From a virus (taxonomy: Duplodnaviria; Caudoviricetes): a stretch of 29,901 nucleotides of DNA. Positions 6,763-25,867 of the stretch are shown in pieces. Each line of letters begins with the position of its first letter. The first letter of the stretch is position 1. The translations under genes and the position numbers were made by a program. The stretch is from positions 1 through 29,901 of the IMG/VR virus record IMGVR_UViG_3300015370_000037. One strand, 5' to 3'. The notes beneath the pieces were generated by a model, which was given only the letters and a program-made list of their open reading frames with translations, did no database searches and was not told where the DNA came from.

Positions 6763-7221
6763 ATGGCAGTAAGAACACCATTATTAAAGCCTGTCCCGAT
6801 TTCTGGTTATAGGGAATACCCGGAATTGAACCCTAGAACGGAACAGCAAGGTCTTAAATTATTGATGGAAGTTTTGGCACAGAATCCTTTTAGCCAGAAG
6901 TTATTCGAGCGATATATCGGATCGAGTTTAATGCCAGTAGAATTTATGGATCAGTTGGGCGGTTCTCAAAGAAGTGATTATGCAAGGTATCATCCAGAAG
7001 AAGGAATACAGATGAGCCAAGAAATGCCTTCAAGGGAAGTATTGCCAAGTTTAGTGCATGAGCTTCAACACGGCGTTAGAGATTGGGAAGGCGAATTGAA
7101 TAGATATAATCTAAAAGATTTGATAAGGGACATTATATCAGGGAGTTCTGAACGCAGGGGTTTAGAAGAAGCCCTTGCCGATCGCGCTCAAAGGTCGGGA
7201 ATCGTCAGGAGGTCGTATTAG
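6763..7221 (+). CDS. HExxH zincin-like metallopeptidase domain protein
   Basis: LVHELQH plus downstream EEALA third-ligand candidate. Confidence 0.65.
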   Translation: MAVRTPLLKPVPISGYREYPELNPRTEQQGLKLLMEVLAQNPFSQKLFERYIGSSLMPVEFMDQLGGSQRSDYARYHPEEGIQMSQEMPSREVLPSLVHELQHGVRDWEGELNRYNLKDLIRDIISGSSERRGLEEALADRAQRSGIVRRSY

Positions 7222-10828: not shown

Positions 10829-11806
10829 ATGAAAAGATTTGTTTTGATAGCACTAGCACTCCTCCTAGCGGTTGGAGTGGCTAACGCCAAGCTGACCAAT
10901 TTTCCTAACGGCGTATCCAGCTTTGGCGTGCCGGTGCTTGGCGGGGGAAATATTACGACTACCGGCAAATTCTTTTTTGTTAGTAGTGCCACTGGTTCAG
11001 ATAGCAATGATGGTTTAAGCACGGATTATCCATTTGCGACCATTGAATATGCTATCGAAAACCATGTAACTGCCAGCAAGGGAGATGTTATTCTGGTTAT
11101 GCCGGGACATACAGAGACACTAACGTCTACTGTAACGCTTTCCGCCGATGATGTTTCTATCATTGGTCTTGGACCTACACCTGGTTGTTCTCTAATAACA
11201 ACTGCTACGGCAGATATTGATATGTTCAATATTACAGGTGATGATTGTCTGATCGAAAACTTGTCGTTTTCCAATACTGGCACTTTGACATCAACATTTG
11301 AAATGATTGATGTTGATGCTAGTAGGGTTATGATTAAAAATTGCAAGTTTGATTTGGGCAACAAAGACAAGGTTGAAGGTGTTAATTTGGCAGCTGCTGA
11401 AGTTGACAACGTAATTACAGAGTGTCAATTCATTAGCCCAGATACCATTGAAGCCTGCGTAGTTTTTGGTGGTGCAAGAACGAAGATCATTGACAACCAC
11501 TTTGATCTATCAGTTGATACTGGCGGAAAGGCTATGCGACAGGAAGGCACAGCCCAGAACGGTATTGTTATTGCCTACAATTCGTTTCTTGCTGGCAATG
11601 CCGTTGGAGCTAGACCTGCTGATTATTTAATCACTTGGCAGTCAACTCCAGGCAGAGGCCACGCAATTATCCGAAACTGGGTAACTTGTTATAGTGCTTC
11701 TACCGAAGCATTTGGCGCGTCAGATGCAGACCTGGATTATTCGTTTGTCGAGAATTATAACGGGCAGACGGATGGTAGCACGGTAGTCCTTGATCCTAGT
11801 CCCTAA
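10829..11806 (+). CDS. Right-handed beta-helix (pectin-lyase-like) virion-associated protein with signal peptide
   Basis: Real start is ATG 10829 (SD AAGGAGG); SP MKRFVLIALALLLAVGVANA; FFVSS..GSDSNDG.S...PFATI..AI, GDVILVMPGH.E, repeated I.NC.F rungs. Confidence 0.85.
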   Translation: MKRFVLIALALLLAVGVANAKLTNFPNGVSSFGVPVLGGGNITTTGKFFFVSSATGSDSNDGLSTDYPFATIEYAIENHVTASKGDVILVMPGHTETLTSTVTLSADDVSIIGLGPTPGCSLITTATADIDMFNITGDDCLIENLSFSNTGTLTSTFEMIDVDASRVMIKNCKFDLGNKDKVEGVNLAAAEVDNVITECQFISPDTIEACVVFGGARTKIIDNHFDLSVDTGGKAMRQEGTAQNGIVIAYNSFLAGNAVGARPADYLITWQSTPGRGHAIIRNWVTCYSASTEAFGASDADLDYSFVENYNGQTDGSTVVLDPSP

Positions 11807-11815
11807 TGTTTTGAT

Positions 11816-11846
11816 AAGGGGGGCTTAACCGCCCCTCTTTCCTTTA
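11816..11846 (+). terminator. Putative intrinsic terminator
   Basis: 9-bp stem AAGGGGGGC/GCCCCTCTT (one G-U), 6-nt loop, followed by TCCTTT. Confidence 0.65.
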
Positions 11847-11861
11847 AGGAGGATATAATTT

Positions 11862-12065
11862 ATGGCTAAGAAATATAGATGGTTTGCTAACAAAAAAGTT
11901 GAAGACGCAATAGCAAATCTTGGTGCGGAAAAAGAAGATATTGAAGAAGGCCAAAAGATTTTTGATGGTATGACTTATATGTCTTACGAAGTAGATGATA
12001 ACAAGCCTGAAGAAGAAGTTGAAGAAGCTCCTAAAAAAAGGGGTCCGAAGCCTAAAAGGAAATAA
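11862..12065 (+). CDS. Small protein, acidic body with basic KKRGPKPKRK tail
   Basis: SD AAGGAGG; pattern common after phage capsid genes. Confidence 0.75.
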   Translation: MAKKYRWFANKKVEDAIANLGAEKEDIEEGQKIFDGMTYMSYEVDDNKPEEEVEEAPKKRGPKPKRK

Positions 12066-12680
12066 ATGGCAGAGATAGTCATACCAACTGACTATGCGTG
12101 GTCAACCTGGACGTTATCTGATGTTACCGATAACACGACCAGTATCAGCTTAACGTCTGGGAAGACTACCGGCACGGCAACCTCGCCAAGTGCGGGGTAT
12201 GATGCCACATCCGGCAATCGGCATTACAAGATAGCCTGGACGGAGGAAGATGGCTATGGCATTTCAGGAGAAGCCAGAACTGCGGACACGTCAGCCGGGA
12301 TAGCTTCAGCCACATGGTTTGATATACGCAATGGTTCTACTTATTTAGTAGAAAATCGCAAAAGGTTTATGCAGGTCAGGTTTACTTTCACAGTAAACGC
12401 AGACGCAACGCTGCCGAAGATTTTAACATTGACTATGACTTATAACGATGTCCCGTTAAACCAGTATGATAATGACGGATTCAACTATTCTGCCGAAGGC
12501 GCACGACCTACAAAGGACGGCAAATTCGCTGGACGTTATTATCAATGCTCTATAACGGGATTAAAATTAAGGAGGCATCAAATGGTTAAACAGCGAGGAA
12601 AATTGGTAAGCCGGGAATACGCTTATGATGTTCCTCAAAAACAATGGGCTGGAACAGAAAAATATATAGGAGGTTATTAG
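12066..12680 (+). CDS. Putative structural protein (beta-sandwich plus degenerate Zn-knuckle-like C-terminus)
   Basis: Thr/Ser-rich beta N-part ending RFMQVRFTF...PKI; C-part QCSITG...RGKLVS...DVPQ. Confidence 0.65.
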   Translation: MAEIVIPTDYAWSTWTLSDVTDNTTSISLTSGKTTGTATSPSAGYDATSGNRHYKIAWTEEDGYGISGEARTADTSAGIASATWFDIRNGSTYLVENRKRFMQVRFTFTVNADATLPKILTLTMTYNDVPLNQYDNDGFNYSAEGARPTKDGKFAGRYYQCSITGLKLRRHQMVKQRGKLVSREYAYDVPQKQWAGTEKYIGGY

Positions 12681-12681
12681 A

Positions 12682-13023
12682 ATGAAAAGATTGCTGGTTT
12701 TGATGATAGTTTTAGGGTTGGCTGGAATGCCTTGTATTGCGGGAACGACATTGGCTAAAAATTTGTATGTATCAGGGCCAACGGCTTTGACGACTGCTGA
12801 TGCAACAGTTACGTTTCCGATAGGAACCCAAGCGTTCACAATAATAAATTATGACACTACTAACACGCTAGAGGTTACTTATAATACACAGACATTTGAA
12901 GTTTCTCCTGTGGTCGGATCGTCAATTTCGTTTGACGACTGCGATTTCGGAAGTATTACCTGGACTGCCAAGGGAACTTCGGGAGAGACGATTAACGCAG
13001 CCTTAGTCATAGCGATTTACTAA
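12682..13023 (+). CDS. Small beta-rich protein with signal peptide
   Basis: SP MKRLLVLMIVLGLAGMPCIA; SD AGGAGG. Confidence 0.75.
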   Translation: MKRLLVLMIVLGLAGMPCIAGTTLAKNLYVSGPTALTTADATVTFPIGTQAFTIINYDTTNTLEVTYNTQTFEVSPVVGSSISFDDCDFGSITWTAKGTSGETINAALVIAIY

Positions 13024-13037
13024 GAGGGAGGAATTAA

Positions 13038-13796
13038 ATGAAAAGATATTTGATTGCAGGGTTATTGTGTTTGATATTAGCATTTAGCGTATTTGCGACT
13101 GGCATTGAAATAGGCGGCGGAGTATCAAAGTTTACGGCTGATGACACTTACGTTCCTTATACCGGGGCGGATAAGGCGGTCAATTTAGGAAGCCAGACGT
13201 TGACTACGACCGGCACGGCTTCGTTTGGGGCAACAACGGTAATTGGCAATACCCTTACGACTGGCAACATAACCACAACTGGTTCGATAGGGGCTGGAAA
13301 CATCGGCACTACCAATTTGGTTGTAGGAAGCATTATAACCGGGGAGAGTGATCTTAGGCTGCAAGGCAATCAGGAATATATCGGTGGTGCGACAATTACA
13401 ACCGATACCGGGAGCTTGACATTTACACCCGGTGGTCAGGCAACGGTAACCATCAACAATGCTTTGGTAGTTGGAAACAGCTTTGAGGCCACACCATCAG
13501 CCATTACCAGCGTATCATCTGCCGGCGGGATAACCGTTACAGCCCATAATATGAGGGTAACAGGCGAAGCGGCTGGAATTGATATAACTGCTAATCCACA
13601 AATAGCAGATGGGGCAAACGGTGAAATAGTCAGGTTGTGGTTTGAGAGCGACACCAATACGATCAAGCTTGATGATGGAACAGGCTTGCAGTTAGCCGGA
13701 GGGCAAAGTTTTACAGGAGGATTAGGGGATTACATCGAGCTGACATATTTTAGTGATGTTGATGTTTGGAGGGAATGTTCGCGTTCGGATAATTAA
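13038..13796 (+). CDS. Tail-fibre/spike-like protein with signal peptide
   Basis: SP MKRYLIAGLLCLILAFSVFA; YVPYTGA...VNLG fibre motif; G/T-rich repeats (TTGNITTTG); C-terminal beta domain ending WRECSR. Confidence 0.75.
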   Translation: MKRYLIAGLLCLILAFSVFATGIEIGGGVSKFTADDTYVPYTGADKAVNLGSQTLTTTGTASFGATTVIGNTLTTGNITTTGSIGAGNIGTTNLVVGSIITGESDLRLQGNQEYIGGATITTDTGSLTFTPGGQATVTINNALVVGNSFEATPSAITSVSSAGGITVTAHNMRVTGEAAGIDITANPQIADGANGEIVRLWFESDTNTIKLDDGTGLQLAGGQSFTGGLGDYIELTYFSDVDVWRECSRSDN

Positions 13797-13808
13797 AAGG
13801 AGGATAAT

Positions 13809-15014
13809 ATGAAAAAGATTTCAGGTTTATTTTTAGGGTTGATTGCTTCATTGTTTCTGATAACCGCTGGCGTAGCAGTTGATCTTGGCCACGGACAGCC
13901 TGAATATATCAAAGGCAACACGATTTTTGTATCAGACCAGCAACTGCTCGGCTCAACCTTCCCCAACACTACCACGCTTTATGTTTGGAACATTGACAGC
14001 GACGCAAGCGAAGCACAGGTTGATATTGTTGGCTCAAAATCATTGGCAGTTGCGGCAGGTGCATTAACCGCAGGCAATGATGTTTTGGGCGTTAGCAAAT
14101 ACTGTGTTTGGTCAGGCGGTAATACGTATTTACAAAGCACGGACACCGATTTTAATGTTGCAAACACAGCTAATACAGACGATTTTATGACTGGCGGGTG
14201 GGTGTATATCCCTGATTACACTCCTGCGGCTAGAGTGGCGTTATTTAGTAATAGTTCTGACGGTGCGGCTCACGGCTATTCGGTGGAACTATCTACGGCT
14301 GGTGTTTTATCCTCAAACCTTTGGGGAGCGACTGACGCCGCTACTTCTTACTCTCTGGCGGCTATTGGCTACTACCATGTGATTATGGCGAGGGAAGTGG
14401 GCGTGAGGCAAAAGTTATATGTGAACGGAAACCTTGTTGCAACTGGCGCAGACACAACGGTTGGGACTACACAATCGCTATTTCAGTTGGGGGGTTTTAA
14501 TTCGGCAACCAGTTCACCCGAAGCCGGAACACGCTACGACGAGTGTTTCTTCAAGAAAGGCGAACTGCCAACTAATCTTGATGATGTGGTGCGCGAAATC
14601 TACGTACGGTCAGCCAAGAAGTTTGCTGTAAAAGACGGCAATGATAATGTTGTTATCCCTGCCAATGTATCAAGCGGGGTTTATACGCCAGTAGCAGTTT
14701 CAGGAAGTCATGTTAATGTGGCAGCAGCAACTTTATATGCAAGCTCATGGAGCAGGGTGGGAAATGTTGTTACTTGTTGTATAAATGTAGATATTGACCC
14801 AACAGCCGCAGTGCCAACAGCAACTGCGTTTGCTTTTACACTACCTATTGCTTGCACTTCAACTCCTACGCTTATAGGTTCAGCTTCTTCTAATGATTAC
14901 ACTCAGGAAGGTGCTGTTAAGGCTATTAACGCCACTACGGCAGCCATTTATTACAAAGCCGTGAACGCTGGAAATGCTGGTTGGGGTGGTATTTATCAAT
15001 ATGTTGTCAATTAA
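13809..15014 (+). CDS. LamG/concanavalin-A-like fibre or receptor-binding protein with signal peptide
   Basis: SP MKKISGLFLGLIASLFLITAGVA; DFMTGGWV, YHV, KLYVNG, FQLG, YDE LamG motifs; C-terminal GVYTP...WSRVGNVVT...FTLP tail-fibre beta-sandwich. Confidence 0.8.
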   Translation: MKKISGLFLGLIASLFLITAGVAVDLGHGQPEYIKGNTIFVSDQQLLGSTFPNTTTLYVWNIDSDASEAQVDIVGSKSLAVAAGALTAGNDVLGVSKYCVWSGGNTYLQSTDTDFNVANTANTDDFMTGGWVYIPDYTPAARVALFSNSSDGAAHGYSVELSTAGVLSSNLWGATDAATSYSLAAIGYYHVIMAREVGVRQKLYVNGNLVATGADTTVGTTQSLFQLGGFNSATSSPEAGTRYDECFFKKGELPTNLDDVVREIYVRSAKKFAVKDGNDNVVIPANVSSGVYTPVAVSGSHVNVAAATLYASSWSRVGNVVTCCINVDIDPTAAVPTATAFAFTLPIACTSTPTLIGSASSNDYTQEGAVKAINATTAAIYYKAVNAGNAGWGGIYQYVVN

Positions 15015-15026
15015 GGAGGTAAAAAC

Positions 15027-15332
15027 ATGAAAAAGATTTTAGCAGTATTCATTGGAATAGGATTGGTTTTGGGATATGTTTTGGCAATAGATAGCATGGC
15101 AAAAAATATTACGGTAATAACAGAAAAGACTTACAATGCTTGGAAGGATTCCCCCTATTTAATCAAATTCATTTTTCCAGCTATTTCCAAGGAAGCGACA
15201 ACAACTTGGGCAACAAAGCCATCACAGAATGCGATTGAAGCAGAAGCAAAAAGGCTTTTTGATATGATAAAGATTGTGGATGATGGCACAGGTTTTGCGG
15301 AACCGGCAAAAGAAATCACTATTGAAAAATGA
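15027..15332 (+). CDS. Hypothetical protein with signal peptide/anchor
   Basis: MKKILAVFIGIGLVLGYVLA; SD AAGGAGGT; follows the fibre gene (fibre-chaperone position). Confidence 0.7.
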   Translation: MKKILAVFIGIGLVLGYVLAIDSMAKNITVITEKTYNAWKDSPYLIKFIFPAISKEATTTWATKPSQNAIEAEAKRLFDMIKIVDDGTGFAEPAKEITIEK

Positions 15333-15616
15333 AAAGATTAGTAACTATATTTTTGTTAATTGCTTTGGCAATGCCAACTTTGGCTAACCCTAAAGACTGG
15401 TTTGATGGTCAAGCTGACAAGATAGGTCATAGCCTGGCCGGTGCAACGGTTGCAGGGCTGTCCTGGAAGCATAAGGCAACCGTGGAAGGGGCGTTATTCA
15501 ACACTCTTTTGGTGGGTTATGCCAAAGAGGAATTTGACCAAAGGTTCGGAGGCAAATGGGACGGCTGGGATTTACTGGCAACCGTGATAGGCGGTGCTTT
15601 ATTCTTGGCCTTATAA
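15329..15616 (+). CDS. YfiM/DUF2279-like membrane protein with signal peptide
   Basis: DKIGH..AG...KE..D....D.WDLLAT..G motif; SP MKRLVTIFLLIALAMPTLA. Confidence 0.7.
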   Translation: MKRLVTIFLLIALAMPTLANPKDWFDGQADKIGHSLAGATVAGLSWKHKATVEGALFNTLLVGYAKEEFDQRFGGKWDGWDLLATVIGGALFLAL

Positions 15617-15702: not shown

Positions 15703-16653
15703 ATGATTTTATTGGACGCATATAATCAGCTTGGTAGAAGGACAGGATTAGACCCGGACATAACCGCCGACCAGGATAAAATGCGGGACGGTATGGAAGA
15801 AGCCCTAAAGCAGATTTACCGCAGGACCAAGCTGATAGCCTTGAAGACTGACGCGACGCTGACGCTTGTGGCTGACACTTATTTCTACTATTTAGACCAC
15901 AGGTATTTATACGGCTTGAATTTTACCGAGAACCTTTCAACGGATTCGTCAGATCGGGGCGTAATGCTTGATGTTCGCAGTAAGCAATGGTTTGACAGGA
16001 ATTATCCCAATCCTGATACAAGCGATACTGGCAAGCCGGAGATGATCGTTCCCATGTATAAGGTTTGGGTATCAGCACAGCCAACAGCAGCTTCGGTGTT
16101 GGCGGTTGTTTCTAGCACGGCAGATACAGAAACAGTAAGAGTTAGAGGCTTGGTTTCTGGTGTTGAGGTAGTGGAAAGCGTAACGCTGACAGGCACAACT
16201 GCGGCCAATACATCAAATACCTATGACGCGAATGGCGTAATTTCAATAACCAAAAAGACTACAACTGGCACAATAACCGTAACTTCAAATTCAGCGGCAG
16301 TTACGAACATATCTTTATTGCCTACGGAAAAAGGCAAGACCCATTGGAAAGTTAGGGTTCATAAAGTGCCTGACGCGGCGTATTCTATCCCTTATACATT
16401 CTTCAGGACGCCTTGGGATTTTTCAGGTTCGGAGTCTGACAGAATACCTTTTGACGAAACCTTTGATGACGCTTTTATTCTGCTTGCAACGGCTATCCTG
16501 CAAAAGATGGATAACAAAGACCAATGGAAAGACAACTGGACTCTGGCTATGGGTATGATCGAGGAAGTAAAGGACAACAATTACTTTAGTGTAGACGAAG
16601 ACGCGACAATGGGTTTAATTGAATTAGATACCGGGAGCGAATGGTGGCATTAA
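15703..16653 (+). CDS. Head-tail adaptor / tail tubular protein A-like
   Basis: Helical N- and C-termini, L.....YYL, TGKP, VPDAAY.I.Y.F, D.IP motifs; Ser/Thr-rich insert at ~16066-16332; no signal peptide. Confidence 0.8.
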   Translation: MILLDAYNQLGRRTGLDPDITADQDKMRDGMEEALKQIYRRTKLIALKTDATLTLVADTYFYYLDHRYLYGLNFTENLSTDSSDRGVMLDVRSKQWFDRNYPNPDTSDTGKPEMIVPMYKVWVSAQPTAASVLAVVSSTADTETVRVRGLVSGVEVVESVTLTGTTAANTSNTYDANGVISITKKTTTGTITVTSNSAAVTNISLLPTEKGKTHWKVRVHKVPDAAYSIPYTFFRTPWDFSGSESDRIPFDETFDDAFILLATAILQKMDNKDQWKDNWTLAMGMIEEVKDNNYFSVDEDATMGLIELDTGSEWWH

Positions 16654-19509
16654 TTGTTTAGTTTATTAGGCAAGATATTTTTGATATTGATTAGTGTGTT
16701 TCTGCCGGCACAGCAGATAGAAGAAGTATGGATCGCCAGCAGAGGGCTTGATGCCATCACTCCGACCCATAATCAAGAGCAGCTTTCTTTTACTCGGCTT
16801 GATAATTATATAATTGGCTCTAAAGCCGAAGAAGACCCAAAATATACCACATTATCCGTCAGGCCTGGAGTTTCGACTTTTCTCAATGACCCCGGCACAG
16901 CTACCAGAGGAATGTTTCATTACCGCAGTCCGGCCGGAGATGACCTAGTTATTTTAGCTACAACAGATACGATATTCAAATCATCAGGCACAATATGGAC
17001 AACCTTAGAGGCTGGGTTATCTGATTTTCCATGGGAAGGGATTCTTTATTCCGACCCTGATGTTGCGAGGCTTTACTTGTGCAACGGCTGGGATAAGAAC
17101 AAAAAATTCCTTTCGGGGCAGAGTGTTTTGCTCCCCATGCAAAACCAAGACAATGAAACGCAAATATCAGGCACAGTCAGGTTCGTTGTTGGAAGCTCGG
17201 TGGCTACTTGCGACGCTATTGCTAATGCCAGCTTAGAGGCAGGGCAGTATATAAAGCCTTCCACGAGCCATGCTAATACTAACTGGATTGAGATAACTTC
17301 TTTAGAGACCGTTGGCTCGGTAACCACGCTTGAATTTTCCTCGCAGTTTCCAGGAACAACCGAAGTTACAACATCTGTTGTGCGTTCAAACGATATGGAT
17401 AACAGCCGGTATATTACCGAGTTTGCGGGGCATATTGTAACTGGATATGTGAGTATATCGGCTACGACAGATGTTGGACCAAACCTTGAAGGAAGTCCTG
17501 AATACTACCTCATGCGGGACTATTACGGCGTAGCGCAAAGCTTTGAGGCAATTACATCTAATATCAGCAGGATTAAAGTTAGGATGTCTGGGGCGTTCCA
17601 ATCCCAATATCCGCCTGCCGGGAATTTAGTTGTTAGATTAAAAGATTCGATTTCCGCCTCTGCGCCTCTGGCAGAAGTTATTTATCCTATGGCCAGCTTA
17701 CCAGTAAATCCTAGTCCTGTTTCTTTTGACTTTGGTTCTATACCAGTGACGATTGGCAACACCTATTATTTCACGATAGAACGGCAGACGAGCGATACCA
17801 CGCCATTTCAGATAGAGCATGGTTCATCTGCGACAGGGACGTCTTATTGGACAGCCAATTCAACTGGATTTGATGGAAGCTGGAATAGTGGCTATACGAC
17901 ATTTGAGATTACACCAAGTTATACTGATAATTTGAGTGTTGATTATCCTGATACTTATATTGATGAGGCAAATCCGACCACGAATTACAAGTCGGCAACG
18001 CAGATTTATGCCGGAAGTCTTGGGGGAAACGTGCGCAAAGCAGTTGTTAAAAGTTTAATAGAATATCATGGATTAACTACTGAAGCACAACCCTGGACGA
18101 ACGTTAAATATAGTATGTATAAGACGGGTGCTGGCACTGGGGAGATCACGGCAGCTCGTATAGTCAGGGTGGACAATCTTCAAGCTATGACTTGGAACAA
18201 AAATAATACGGTTGTGAATTGGGCGCAAGCTGGTTGTAATAAAGCTGGCACCACGGCTGGAGATGATTATACTGTGGTAGCTATGTCAACAGAAGCCATA
18301 ACTTCAGTAGAAGGATATGTAACTTGGGAAGTAACAACTTTATCAGCAAGTTGGGATGTTGACACAAACATCAATTATGGCATGGTAATCAGCAACGAAA
18401 CCAGCGGGCAAATAGTTACTTTTGAAAGCTCTAATGCTTCAAGCAACAAGCCTAAATGGTTATTAACAACCCTAACCGGCTCGGCTGAATCGGGACATGA
18501 CCTTTATTTTGAAATCTCGTCAGAAGACAGCGATAGAAGCACGGTTGTTTATAGCAAACGCTTTTTTCCCGAGAATTACCCTTCATTAAATACATTTGAT
18601 ATTCCTGGCAGGATAGTGGGATTAGCCAAAACCGGCGGCTATTTAATTGTAGGCGGCAAAGACCCCGACGCCATGCACTTTTACCGCTTTACGGGGGACG
18701 TATTAGACGGCAAAGGCATAGACTATGTTACCACGGTAAACGATATAACTTTTGGCAGTTCCAAGTCAATAGCCTATCCCCCAATGGACGATTCGTTCAT
18801 ATTCTTTTCAGGGTTAGGAATTTATCATCAGAAAGGCTTGCAGACAATGCTTCTATCGGCGCAGATCAGAGAACAAGCCAAGAAGTTTTCTGATTACCGT
18901 GACCCAAGGGATTACTACGGCGGTTTAGCGGATTTAATGCCGCAGGCGACGATTCTACCTACCAAAGACACTTATTTAATATCCGTGCCGAATGCTGAAT
19001 CAATAAACAGCTATATTTACGGGTTAAATTACGCAATGGGAAGCTGGTATCGCTGGACTAATCTAAACGCTACAACTTTAATGACCAGAAGATCGGGGGG
19101 AATAGAGCCTCGGCTTTATTTAGGATATGGCACAGGCCAAGTCTACACGCTGGACACTTCGGGGTCAACGACTACGGTAGCTACGGCAGAATTTTTCCTT
19201 AACAAAAACGATATAACCAAGACTAAGAAATTGAATTTTATAGAATTTGGGGTTAGAAAAGATAATCCCCTAACAAATAGTGTTGTTAGTTTAGAGGTAG
19301 GAACGATAGATAAAGGCGGAAGTGAAACTTATGGAAAAGCTTTAGATGACAACGCTACAACAGATAAAATGGAATATATTAACTTTACTCCTGGCTTAAC
19401 GGCCAAGGAGTTTAAGTTGAAGTTTACCCAGCAGGCGACTGCCGGGGCGGTATCAATTCGGTCAATACGGTATAACTACACCGTAAATAACACACCAGGA
19501 GGGAAATAA
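16654..19509 (+). CDS. Tail nozzle / tail tubular protein B (P22 gp10/T7 gp12-like) with inserted domains and an N-terminal signal peptide
   Basis: RGL...LDN...LSVRPG start motif, YLCNG, VVYS...PE, FFSGLGIY, LSAQI, W..W propeller blades, KKL...C-terminal beta domain; follows the adaptor; TTG start, SD GGTGG. Confidence 0.8.
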   Translation: MFSLLGKIFLILISVFLPAQQIEEVWIASRGLDAITPTHNQEQLSFTRLDNYIIGSKAEEDPKYTTLSVRPGVSTFLNDPGTATRGMFHYRSPAGDDLVILATTDTIFKSSGTIWTTLEAGLSDFPWEGILYSDPDVARLYLCNGWDKNKKFLSGQSVLLPMQNQDNETQISGTVRFVVGSSVATCDAIANASLEAGQYIKPSTSHANTNWIEITSLETVGSVTTLEFSSQFPGTTEVTTSVVRSNDMDNSRYITEFAGHIVTGYVSISATTDVGPNLEGSPEYYLMRDYYGVAQSFEAITSNISRIKVRMSGAFQSQYPPAGNLVVRLKDSISASAPLAEVIYPMASLPVNPSPVSFDFGSIPVTIGNTYYFTIERQTSDTTPFQIEHGSSATGTSYWTANSTGFDGSWNSGYTTFEITPSYTDNLSVDYPDTYIDEANPTTNYKSATQIYAGSLGGNVRKAVVKSLIEYHGLTTEAQPWTNVKYSMYKTGAGTGEITAARIVRVDNLQAMTWNKNNTVVNWAQAGCNKAGTTAGDDYTVVAMSTEAITSVEGYVTWEVTTLSASWDVDTNINYGMVISNETSGQIVTFESSNASSNKPKWLLTTLTGSAESGHDLYFEISSEDSDRSTVVYSKRFFPENYPSLNTFDIPGRIVGLAKTGGYLIVGGKDPDAMHFYRFTGDVLDGKGIDYVTTVNDITFGSSKSIAYPPMDDSFIFFSGLGIYHQKGLQTMLLSAQIREQAKKFSDYRDPRDYYGGLADLMPQATILPTKDTYLISVPNAESINSYIYGLNYAMGSWYRWTNLNATTLMTRRSGGIEPRLYLGYGTGQVYTLDTSGSTTTVATAEFFLNKNDITKTKKLNFIEFGVRKDNPLTNSVVSLEVGTIDKGGSETYGKALDDNATTDKMEYINFTPGLTAKEFKLKFTQQATAGAVSIRSIRYNYTVNNTPGGK

Positions 19510-19510
19510 A

Positions 19511-20521
19511 ATGGTAATAACAGGAGGAGCAACGCTGCTAGATGCCCTTAAAACAACTGGCACTATGCCAGCAGATTGGCAAAATCAACAAAGAGCATTA
19601 GATCGTTTAATGGAACAACAAAGAGCGAGACAAGGAGGAGGGATTAAGGCTTTCCAGCCAAGCCAGCCACGCACATTGACTCCGGCAATGCAAAGGCAAG
19701 CGGCGATAGATTATCAAAGAGCGACACAGGGAGGCAGGATTCCAATGCCTCAAGTAACAGACCCAGGGGCGTCAGCGGTTTCAAGCGGCGGTGCAACTTC
19801 TATCCCAGGAATAACTAATCCTTACTTTGACCCTGCTACACAGCAGAAAGGTTATAGTGCTTTGGAACAGGCATTGGCTCCGGGTATAAGAGGCGGCACA
19901 GAGCAGGTTATGAGCCAGATTAGCCCTTATATGAGAGGTAGCAGAGGGGCTTCGTTGCTTAGGGAAGTAATGCAACCAGCACAGCAGGCTAGGGCGCAGT
20001 TTGGGTTAGGACAGGCACAGGCAGGCACAGCTTATGAGGCGGAGTTGCCTTTCAGAGCCGCACCGTTTACTGGAACATTTGGAGGCGAGAAAACATTCCC
20101 GACGCAGGTAGCAGAAGCGGCTATGACTGGACAGTATGGCGGCAGGCCAACGACTTCTTATATAAGTCAGATGATGCCTTGGATAACAGAAGGATATTTG
20201 CCTAGTTCAACACTTCCAGGAATGGAGGGAATAAGGACTGGCAGAGAAATAGACCCAGCAGAATCAGCCGCCCAAAGAGCAGGATTTAGAAGTGCTTATG
20301 AGCAAGCTCTTTATATGGCCGACCCAGAAGCTTACGAAAGAATGTTTGGCAAACGGTCAGGTTCGCCAGTTTTTACTGAAGGTGGCGGAGGATGGGGAGC
20401 AACACTTGACCCTAGCACTGGAATGCCTTGGGGGGCGGTTCCTAATGTTGGAAGTGATAAGCCATATCTAGGAATGGCTTACGGACCGCACGTAGCTAGA
20501 GGTGGAATAAGAGCCTTTTAA
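19511..20521 (+). CDS. Putative internal virion/ejection protein
   Basis: Q/A/G/P-rich low-complexity sequence, repeated TG.YGG motifs; position after the nozzle. Confidence 0.6.
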   Translation: MVITGGATLLDALKTTGTMPADWQNQQRALDRLMEQQRARQGGGIKAFQPSQPRTLTPAMQRQAAIDYQRATQGGRIPMPQVTDPGASAVSSGGATSIPGITNPYFDPATQQKGYSALEQALAPGIRGGTEQVMSQISPYMRGSRGASLLREVMQPAQQARAQFGLGQAQAGTAYEAELPFRAAPFTGTFGGEKTFPTQVAEAAMTGQYGGRPTTSYISQMMPWITEGYLPSSTLPGMEGIRTGREIDPAESAAQRAGFRSAYEQALYMADPEAYERMFGKRSGSPVFTEGGGGWGATLDPSTGMPWGAVPNVGSDKPYLGMAYGPHVARGGIRAF

Positions 20522-22149: not shown

Positions 22150-22811
22150 ATGGTTACAACCCAAGAAATATTAAAGAAATATGGAATATCTCAAACGGAT
22201 GTTAAAAAGTTAGGAGAACCGCAGTCGCCTAAATTGTTTGGCAAGGAAGTTGAATTCAAAGGTGCAACAGTTGGTGGTGCGAGATTCGATATTAAAACCC
22301 CAGAAGATGACTTGCTAAAAAAATATGAAGTAAGAACTGAAAAAGCTAGAGCAGTAAAGGCGGAAAGAGAAGCTGGCGGTGAAAGATTAGCGGGAGCACA
22401 ATTAGACGATTTGGTTGGCTTGGCAAATACCATAAATAAATTAGAAGATTTATTAGCAGAAATGAAGCAAAAAAATATCCTACTGGAATTTTGGCAGGAA
22501 AAATGCCTTATAAGCAATATATATATGGTCCGGAGTATGAAGTTTGGAGAACGAGAGGAGAAGAAGTATTTCAACAATATAGAAAAGCAATTACCGGCGC
22601 ACAAGCTTCGGTAAAAGAATTGGCATATTTAAGGCCGATTATGCCTAGTGAAAAAGATACTTTTAGAACGTGGATTATAAAAGCAGAAAAGCAGATATCC
22701 GACAATAGAAAAAAAGTTAAAACTACATTAAATGTTTTAGAAAAAGCTGGTTATAATATCGATGCGGTTAGGGACGTTTATAATCGTTCATTTGAAGAAG
22801 AATTCTTTTAA
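22150..22811 (+). CDS. Putative ejection protein split by a -1 frameshift at the A7 run (22469-22475)
   Basis: ORFs 22150-22614 and 22491-22811 join as ...EMKQKKYPTGILAGKMP... if one base is added or re-read in the A7 run, giving ~220 aa. Confidence 0.65.
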
Positions 22812-24712: not shown

Positions 24713-25192
24713 ATGAAATGGTTAATTTTATTTTTAATAGCCTTATTAAGCCTGCCTGTTTATGGTAAGACACTTCCCCAGCCGCTTCGCAACATACAGG
24801 TTACCGATAGCCATAGCGCTGATGCCCGGTGGAATTTTGATGTTATACAAGGCCAATTAAAAGCCGCCGTTGGATTCCTGCCTTCCCCAACGCAAACATT
24901 AACTGTTAATTCAACTATTATAGTTGGAAGCCGTGCAATTCCCCTAGCTGGAGATGGGGCAGTAACACTAACTGCGACTCCAACAATAGCCAATGGATTT
25001 GATGGTCAAGTGGCAATTCTTATAGGAACAAGCAATGTAAACACGGTTACAATCCAGCATGGCACAACTTATAATTTGCTTTTAGATCAGGGCCAGGATT
25101 TTACTTTAGGCAATGGTGATTCTATTGTTTTATTGTTTTTAACTGCGATTGGTGATTGGATTGAATTAGACCGAAAGAACGTGGCAGGATAA
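24713..25192 (+). CDS. Signal-peptide protein with a domain paralogous to the C-terminus of 13038-13796
   Basis: SP MKWLILFLIALLSLPVYG; P.IA.G..G.......S..NT......L.L..GQ.FT.G.GD.I.L...W.E..R shared with the fibre-like gene. Confidence 0.75.
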   Translation: MKWLILFLIALLSLPVYGKTLPQPLRNIQVTDSHSADARWNFDVIQGQLKAAVGFLPSPTQTLTVNSTIIVGSRAIPLAGDGAVTLTATPTIANGFDGQVAILIGTSNVNTVTIQHGTTYNLLLDQGQDFTLGNGDSIVLLFLTAIGDWIELDRKNVAG

Positions 25193-25193
25193 A

Positions 25194-25469
25194 ATGACTA
25201 AAGACAAATACGAATGGCTGTCTATTTTTAAGAACGGGACTTTGCAGGACGTTGTTAAGCTATTGGTTTTTGTTGGAATTATCCTTGGGGTGTATTTTAG
25301 AATTGAGGGATTGTTAAATGACAAGTATGCCAGCGTAGCTTCGGTAAGGGTGGTTGAGGAGGATGTGGACAGGTTAGAGCTAACTTTGGACAGGAACTTA
25401 AGCAGCATTTCCGCCAAGCTGGATAATTTGCAAACAAACATCTGGCGGTTAGTTAAGGAGATGAAATAA
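25194..25469 (+). CDS. Holin-like single-TM protein with coiled coil
   Basis: TM LLVFVGIILGVYF followed by heptads; directly upstream of the endolysin. Confidence 0.55.
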   Translation: MTKDKYEWLSIFKNGTLQDVVKLLVFVGIILGVYFRIEGLLNDKYASVASVRVVEEDVDRLELTLDRNLSSISAKLDNLQTNIWRLVKEMK

Positions 25470-25867
25470 TGCTTAAATTTGATTTCCCTTTAGATAAAAA
25501 ATATCAATTTATATCTTCGCCGTTTGGCTGGCGATGGATATTTGGAAAATGGGGTTTTCATGGAGGGGTAGATTATCCCTGTCCGAATGGCGCGCCTATT
25601 TATGCGCCTTATAATGGAATTATAGCTGATGTGGGCAAAAGACTAAGAGCTGGCAATATTCTTGTAGTAAATCATCCTTCCGTGGGGGACGTTCAAACGG
25701 TTTATTACCATTTGAAAAAAGTATTGTTTCGGGTTGGCCAAGAAATTCAGCGAGGGGAAGTTATCGCTGAAACTGATAATACAGGGACTTGGGTTTTAGG
25801 GAATGGCCACTTACATTACGGAGTAAGGGTTAATGGCCATTGGATTGATCCTTGTCTTACTTATTGA
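25469..25867 (+). CDS. M23 family peptidase (endolysin)
   Basis: ISSPFG.R, HGGVD (HxxxD), YYHL, NTG, GHLHY (HxH), IDP; no signal peptide or binding domain. Confidence 0.92.
   Translation: MLKFDFPLDKKYQFISSPFGWRWIFGKWGFHGGVDYPCPNGAPIYAPYNGIIADVGKRLRAGNILVVNHPSVGDVQTVYYHLKKVLFRVGQEIQRGEVIAETDNTGTWVLGNGHLHYGVRVNGHWIDPCLTY

Follow-up and report, generated by a model that had tools for sequence, protein, structure and literature searches.

Why should the tail nozzle of a short-tailed phage begin with a stretch that looks like an export signal? The question is raised by the open reading frame (ORF) at 16654..19509 of the virus record IMGVR_UViG_3300015370_000037 (Caudoviricetes). The whole stretch analysed, called the window here, is one contig of 29,901 nucleotides (29.9 kb) from groundwater metagenomes, and it belongs to an uncultured, lytic short-tailed phage with a bacterial host. 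The first 19 residues of the predicted nozzle form a hydrophobic leader. The tails of the podophages whose hubs have been solved are assembled on heads in the cytoplasm. The reading favoured here, at a probability of about 0.5, is that the leader is an unusual, charge-poor Sec export signal that would be cleaved after Ala19, and that the nozzle would be joined to cytoplasmic heads at lysis.

Predicted fold of the nozzle

The structural model was built with AlphaFold from 23 sequences (predicted local distance difference test, pLDDT, 82.3) and replaced a model from six sequences (pLDDT 49.9), which was discarded; tail chains already ranked first among the Foldseek matches of the latter, at a template modelling (TM) score of ~0.14. 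With the new model the tail chains of A4, crAss001, SU10 and Pa223 rank first in Foldseek (E 4e-21 to 7e-13), P22 gp10 follows at 1e-10 and T7 gp12 (7boy) at 7e-8, the nine best VIA rows are all phage tail chains, and the best match among viral models is annotated as P22 gp10-like. By VIA-align, model residues 20-949 lie on residues 2-513 of the Pa223 chain (Z 27.4, root-mean-square deviation, rmsd, 2.9, 449 residues), the SU10 alignment (Z 24.8) begins with residue 22 on residue 2, and P22 gives Z 23.4 (rmsd 3.5, 420 residues, 22-943 on 2-472). WD40 proteins align at Z 21-23 over ~275 propeller residues only (model ~50-836), unlike the tail chains, whose alignments run from 20-22 to 943-950. 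The model contains both an interrupted beta-propeller core and a platform beta-sandwich built from N- and C-terminal segments. On this model the ORF is a podophage nozzle, which bears out the earlier note, where Foldseek comparison with P22 gp10 and T7 gp12 had been proposed as the check. Neither Phage_stabilise PF11134 nor a PHROG nozzle family was matched at E 0.01, and PDB sequence searches with the nozzle returned nothing relevant; the Atlas lists PF11134 for it (score 0.77), which is taken as a lead only.

The solved hubs P22 gp10 (8u10, 8eap), Sf6 gp8 (7sg7), SU10 gp17 (7z47), Pa223 (9nwi) and the crAss001 muzzle (7qok) have the same propeller and two-ended platform (Z 21.8-27.4 over 420-480 residues) and lie between adaptor and ejection genes, a slot that the window nozzle would share on the putative assignment of its neighbours. 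SU10 gp17 also carries large propeller inserts, with which the carbohydrate-binding module (CBM) insert of the window nozzle is comparable in plan (PMC9509320). The solved hubs differ in their low identity to the window nozzle (10-13%) and in having no leader: residues 1-3 of the Pa223, crAss001, SU10, VP1 and P22 chains align to model residues 20-22, and leader residues 1-19, of which 1-16 are a low-confidence helix in the model, are therefore an addition. Behind the leader stands the RGL...LDN...RPG motif named in the earlier note (RGL at residues 30-32, 16741-16749; LDN at 49-51, 16798-16806; RPG at 70-72, 16861-16869); the motif is present as claimed, although LDN and RPG lie past 16760, where that note had ended its region.

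Distribution and start of the leader

The nozzle was compared among 17 distinct clade members with an intact start, window included (39-54% identity). Duplicates had been merged (P0007=P0049; L001=L004=L005=P0005; L002=L006=P0009; L008=P0011; L003=window), P0013 (begins mid-protein) and P0024 (5'-truncated) were dropped, and 28 of the 43 matches of one search, which covered short stretches only, mostly the CBM insert, were ignored. A hydrophobic extension of 20-39 residues is found in all 17. None of the three outgroup sequences with an intact start (21-25% identity) has a leader, and in each of them the motif glycine is residue 11, in agreement with the statement in the earlier note that the motif sits about ten residues behind the N-terminal end in leaderless nozzles. 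The 50,697 phage records searched contained no nozzle relative, nor did the GTDB genome contigs; with the next gene and with the C-terminal core as queries, no further contigs came to light.

Fifteen leaders follow a common pattern in fixed register, approximately L-x-L-L-G ... L-x-(N/S)-V-F-L-x-P-(G/A), and those of P0008 and P0012 look like ordinary Sec signals with a basic n-region, an h-region and a small-residue site. Trees made without the leader place P0008 and P0012 outside the uncharged-leader group, with support of 91/92 (residues 30-420, 17 rows) and 93/97 (most of the mature chain, 16 rows), neither branch being starred. From these trees, which are moderately supported and rooted on two distant sequences, a series from no leader through a classical signal to the conserved uncharged leader is put forward as the likeliest order.

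The start itself is as the earlier note described it: the TTG at 16654 directly follows the stop of the putative adaptor gene (TAA, 16651-16653), with GGTGG (16643-16647) upstream at a spacing of 6 nt. The encoded N-terminus is MFSLLGKIFLILISVFLPA followed, across the candidate cleavage site, by QQIEEVWIASRGL. On the Kyte-Doolittle scale the best 12-residue window of the leader averages 2.84 (2.28-3.09 across the 15 leaders), a value reached by 18 of 20000 random 31-residue draws from the nozzle protein, in whose mature part the best internal window scores 1.42. Eight other signal-bearing ORFs of the window score 2.72-3.34, and the remaining 21 of the 30 window ORFs examined score at most 2.01. 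The start region is identical in contigs of three runs not flagged as potential sources, X8 (16437-16972), X9 (16644-16940) and X16 (16423-16691); the X16 contigs come from an RNA library and cover the nozzle start, which is not evidence of transcription.

Translation from GTG 16696 or later, by which the hydrophobic stretch would never be made, is very improbable. It would account for the weak TTG and the imperfect Shine-Dalgarno (SD) sequence GGTGG, as most genes of the operon have ATG and a strong SD, and L009 has a GTG in the same column, with late in-frame start codons near the leader end in L008 and L002 as well. Against it, no SD precedes 16696, and all five distinct relatives with DNA start ahead of the hydrophobic stretch (ATG in four, GTG in one), L002 with GGAGG 6 nt and L009 with AGGAGG 4 nt upstream. 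L001/L005 and L007 offer no start codon (ATG, GTG or TTG) nearer to the motif glycine than 23 codons upstream of it, which leaves no place for a counterpart of GTG 16696; in the first 80 codons of the window ORF such codons occur at 1, 10, 12 and 15 only. The stretch is moreover conserved in amino acid sequence, which indicates that it is translated. Nothing unusual was seen in predicted RNA structure at TTG 16654 or GTG 16696. The relatives thus support TTG 16654, the upstream of the two starts weighed in the earlier note, and a minor leaderless second product is possible in L009, L008 and L002.

Nature of the leader

In hydrophobicity the leaders equal classical signals: the Eisenberg mean is 0.81 both for them and for 20 classical signals of the same phages, picked by eye for looking like signals, and the moment is low. 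Under the -3/-1 small-residue rule, applied by script with no Pro at +1, a site lies 11-12 residues ahead of the motif glycine in 12 of the 15 leaders, at the border to the ordinary nozzle start; the candidate site of the window, L-P-A/Q, conforms to this rule. Net charge over the 13 residues leading to the motif glycine is negative in 13 of the 15 and zero in two, never positive, and under the positive-inside rule acidic or neutral residues after the leader fit a C-terminus-out orientation (PMC9360617). With the Sec signal cut by signal peptidase I (SPase I), as described in that source, the leader has in common its N-terminal place, a length of ~19-24 residues, the hydrophobicity of the h-region, small residues at -3 and -1 and an acidic early mature region. 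The same source states that a basic n-region raises export efficiency while the apolar region is essential, and that position -2 is solvent-exposed in SPase I. K7 is the sole basic residue of the window leader, and most relatives have none, which brings the window protein nearer to the textbook form than most of them; its n-region is weaker than that of the other seven signal-bearing proteins, just as the earlier note held.

Other classes of signal were tried and rejected. None of the 15 leaders has a Cys, as a lipoprotein signal (signal peptidase II, SPII) would, and none has the RR of a Tat signal. The prepilin (class III) motif comprises a basic leader, a site between Gly and Phe and Glu at +5; it was suggested by G-L-T-L-L-G, but Gly precedes the helix in some rows only and +5 is Gly, not Glu, and pilin N-methylation has no match in Pfam or NCBIfam. 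The signal-arrest-release (SAR) domain is a weakly hydrophobic, Gly/Ala-rich helix. By its definition in PMC8385771 it stays uncleaved and is released on membrane depolarisation. The leaders are as hydrophobic as classical signals, with a G+A+S fraction of 0.22 vs 0.24 in the latter. N-glycosylation sequons are not enriched in the nozzle (13 vs 10.7 expected, p 0.26).

Export is the most likely function, because P0008 and P0012, which branch early, have Sec signals of classical appearance at this position, and because seven operon neighbours bear classical signals. Taking all readings with export together, it is probable, to judge by sequence, that the nozzle leaves the cytoplasm. This part of the earlier note's proposal stands; that the leader is a signal peptide in the strict sense is not established, given its n-region, the Pro at -2 and its conservation.

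Signals on the surrounding genes

Within the window the leaders are divided in a consistent way: they are found on outer parts, and none on head, adaptor-slot or ejection-slot proteins. The comparison extends to six relative loci, at most four distinct phages with complete context (the L008 and L009 contigs are short or cut, and L001 and L005 have the same nozzle). In five of the six, small or fibre-like genes bear classical signals, and none of the six has a classical signal on a capsid, portal-slot, adaptor-slot or ejection-slot gene. The slot after the last ejection gene encodes a signal-bearing protein with an N-terminal motif common to the window, L001 and L002. It may be the needle; its look-alikes in the Atlas are unnamed viral and fibre-like proteins only. 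The signal-bearing gene at 15329-15616 gives by eye the impression of a small membrane protein, not of a virion part, and has a weak match to a PHROG of unknown function only, so not all seven signal-bearing genes need be structural.

Apart from one weak fibre match, the nozzle and the next gene are all that BLASTP finds in common between the window and the relative loci, the heads and adaptors being without a match, and the sequences thus mark the nozzle and the next gene as a module that travels together. In P22 the hub templates the first ejected protein (10.64898/2026.09.03.749273), and the co-conservation of nozzle and next gene fits such templating by analogy. Beside the same nozzle family, L002 (6120-7127), L005 (1573-2550) and L007 (5542-6531) have a different major capsid family from that of the window, phrog_9953 in L002 and L007. 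The gene right after the major capsid gene has a classical signal in L002 (7147-7749), L005 (2565-2906), L007 (6543-6881) and the window (10829), which suggests that head decorations, too, might be added from outside. In L002, 20911-21519 is signal-bearing and resembles by eye what we take to be a bacterial carbohydrate-binding module; this could help to identify the host.

Alternative readings of the leader

Several observations speak against a signal that is simply cut off and lost. K or R occurs in residues 2-6 of one of the 15 leaders, as against all 20 of the classical signals (chosen by eye), so a basic n-region is missing in 14; the Pro of the candidate site stands at -2, not as a helix breaker at -4 to -6, and in three of the 15 at -3. 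Mean identity of the leader in fixed register is 48%, compared with 41-62% in the mature core and 28% in the CBM insert, and exceeds that of unrelated classical signals (19% in fixed register, 33% at the best offset; eight same-slot classical pairs have 31-50%). Such conservation of sequence, length and register resembles that of a retained part, and the leader may be an uncleaved anchor. Behind its own classical signal P0012 has a stretch that matches window residues 12-25, and the leader may thus be kept in part. Neither L008 nor L009 has signals on the genes adjoining the nozzle, whose own start is the only signal-like one, and a tree of the C-terminal core leaves the branching order unresolved (46/63). 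Furthermore, P22 heads without the needle lose their DNA before lysis (PMC3741392), and no dedicated plug gene was identified in the window.

If the nozzle were exported and its leader not cut at once, the leader would be a sequence-specific signal anchor that keeps the nozzle attached to the inner membrane from outside, with the platform on the membrane side, until release or cutting at lysis. This is possible, if on the unlikely side. The fixed register agrees with it, as do the identity of 48%, a Gly fixed in position in 16 of 17 rows and a likewise fixed Val, with Asn or Ser beside it, in 17 of 18 (in an ungapped table that includes one duplicate and two classical rows), the missing basic n-region, the poor cleavage site in three of the 15 leaders, the distal leader part retained in P0012 and the N-terminus being part of the adaptor-facing platform in SU10 and Sf6. 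On the other hand, the small-residue site falls exactly at the ordinary nozzle start in 12 of the 15, the free virion would have to accommodate an uncut helix at the platform, and the leader is Leu-rich without enrichment in G, A and S, which makes SAR-type release unlikely. Quite doubtful is a version in which the uncharged helix evolved from a Sec signal into a membrane anchor, the nozzle sits outside on the inner membrane, platform facing in, filled cytoplasmic heads dock opposite and the two are joined through the membrane at lysis. It is unlikely, too, that the nozzle stays in the cytoplasm, the leader serving as an N-out/C-in tether that sites tail assembly at the membrane or as a buried helix of the virion. 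The lack of basic residues ahead of the helix, its conservation at the level of the mature part and the signal-free neighbours in L008 and L009 would suit this, and the DNA-retention problem known from P22 (PMC3741392) would be sidestepped; what stands in its way is that the helix has no cluster of basic residues behind it (net -2 to 0), that the early-branching relatives have ordinary N-in signals, and that the helix is uniformly hydrophobic rather than amphipathic (moment 0.19 on average, 0.34 in the window) and of low confidence in the monomer model. The adaptors of the carriers also differ; since adaptors and heads have no BLASTP match while the leader persists, the leader goes with the nozzle whatever the adaptor, which argues against an adaptor-binding helix. 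There is little chance that a nozzle-like protein is exported without being part of the virion, serving for instance as a decoy or exclusion factor in the periplasm. Since position alone identifies the adaptor, there is some room for this, but the gene is the sole nozzle-like one recognised in the contig, lies in what would be the canonical slot, has platform and propeller intact and is conserved together with the ejection-slot gene that follows; this would be expected of a hub that templates that protein in the way the P22 hub does (10.64898/2026.09.03.749273).

Proposed route of assembly

Under the favoured reading of a cleaved, charge-poor Sec signal, the leader would carry the predicted nozzle across the host inner membrane, and a cut after Ala19 would leave its N-terminus level with those of ordinary nozzles. 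The nozzle would wait outside the cytoplasm, probably as a monomer like P22 gp10 in solution, alongside needle-like and fibre proteins that are likewise exported. In filled heads with their adaptor, a gate in the portal or the adaptor would retain the DNA until the membrane is opened by the holin; at lysis the tail tip would be put together on the adaptor, head and tail tip having been built on opposite sides of the membrane.

Adaptor, hub and needle join the heads of Sf6 and P22 one after another, which stops genome leakage, and gp10 is monomeric until assembly (PMC9728967, PMC3741392). The earlier note had the hub close the channel; the hub does hold the plug in P22 and Sf6, but the final plug is the needle seated in it, not the hub alone (PMC3741392, PMC9728967). 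The inference in the earlier note that DNA-filled heads need some other plug holds only if export is real; with both nozzle and needle exported, heads would have to hold their DNA without either until lysis. A self-closing portal is known in P23-45 (PMC7234808), and by analogy a portal of this type is one candidate for the alternative seal.

Gene layout and further observations

The small and large terminase, a cement protein and the major capsid protein were identified in the window by family searches, by which terminase and capsid upstream of the nozzle are confirmed. A portal-sized and a scaffold-like ORF, followed by a run of appendage genes, were assigned by position, and the adaptor and ejection genes by position and composition only (Table 1); the putative adaptor has no family match and no PDB sequence match. 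The gene at 19511..20521 is the only downstream gene co-conserved with the nozzle, the slot and signal of 24713..25192 recur in L001 and L002, and the gene at 12066, amid the six signal-bearing genes, carries no signal. The holin-like protein and the M23 endolysin mark a lytic exit.

Table 1. Positions of the nozzle, its parts and the neighbouring genes in the window
Feature	Position	Strand	Evidence
Weak Shine-Dalgarno-like GGTGG, within the 3' end of the upstream gene	16643..16647	+	Sequence
Hydrophobic leader of 19 residues, TTG start, candidate cleavage L-P-A/Q-Q after residue 19	16654..16710	+	Sequence; helix in model, pLDDT mostly <50; not in solved nozzles
First ordered strand (residues 21-26), matching residues 1-6 of solved nozzles in position	16714..16731	+	Model and structural alignment
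Conserved motif RGL...LDN...RPG	16741..16869	+	G31, N51 and P71 invariant in 16-sequence alignment
Inserted CBM96/DNRLRE domain, residues 433-606	17950..18471	+	PF24517 E 3e-5 (below cut-off); NF033679 E 1e-10 (above cut-off)
C-terminal beta-sandwich platform, adaptor-facing in solved tails	19180..19485	+	Model, alignments; PMC9509320, PMC9728967
Putative head-tail adaptor, without leader	15703..16653	+	Identity from position only
Predicted tail nozzle/hub, 951 aa	16654..19509	+	AlphaFold pLDDT 82.3; Foldseek and VIA matches to A4, crAss001, SU10, Pa223, P22, Sf6 and T7 tail chains
Putative first ejection protein, without leader	19511..20521	+	BLASTP to L001, L002, L008; role from gene slot
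Putative needle or short fibre, classical signal peptide	24713..25192	+	Needle role suggested
Six genes with classical MK(K/R) signal peptides	10829, 12682, 13038, 13809, 15027, 15329 (span 10829..15616)	+	Some fibre- or spike-like
Holin-like single-helix protein and M23 endolysin without signal	25194..25867	+	PF01551 E 1e-22; holin role from hydrophobicity and position

Some further features of the window were recorded. A GroES co-chaperonin homolog lies at 1302-1577 (phrog_3188, E 6e-10). The ORF at 2095-2649 has a classical signal peptide and a C-terminal Phe and resembles by eye a small outer-membrane protein, which hints at a two-membrane host; it has no family or genome match, so that gene names no host. 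The ORF at 6763-7221, after the portal-slot gene, has an HExxH motif (HELQH) but no family match, and no HExxH ORF was found on the + strand of the six relative loci. A gene at 22150-22811 appears split over two frames; this is probably an assembly slip in the window, since the contig of run X6 has one extra base after 22468.

Known systems and meaning of the leader

Phage-encoded N-terminal membrane signals that could time release to lysis are known from the SAR endolysins P1 Lyz and phage 21 R (PMC8385771). SAR domains are unlike the leader in that they belong to lysis enzymes and not to virion parts, and in that the leader is Leu-rich with a candidate cleavage site; T4 RI shows how easily SAR and cleavable signals are confused without experiment (PMC8385771).

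Virion proteins with signal peptides are known from the filamentous phage Ff, whose coat proteins pIII and pVIII are placed in the inner membrane before assembly. The difference is that Ff is extruded without lysis as single-stranded DNA and has no preformed head or tail, whereas the phage of the window has a terminase, a capsid, a portal-slot gene and an M23 endolysin. No report of export signals on tailed-phage nozzles or tails was found in the full text of PMC and bioRxiv, a coverage that leaves out subscription papers and supplements, and passages of PMC13059738, PMC12309495 and PMC5723332 contain nothing on exported tail parts.

To our knowledge, the tailed phages studied complete the virion inside the cytoplasm, where each head is sealed as soon as it has been packaged. 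Exported fibres could be optional additions, but the nozzle is the socket of the plug and the template of the ejection channel. If its export is true, completion of the tail is tied to lysis and the heads need another seal. If it were shown, such a way of assembly would be new in kind; the joining of head and tail across a membrane is not known for tailed phages. This clade also displays a possible evolutionary series of the leader types concerned.

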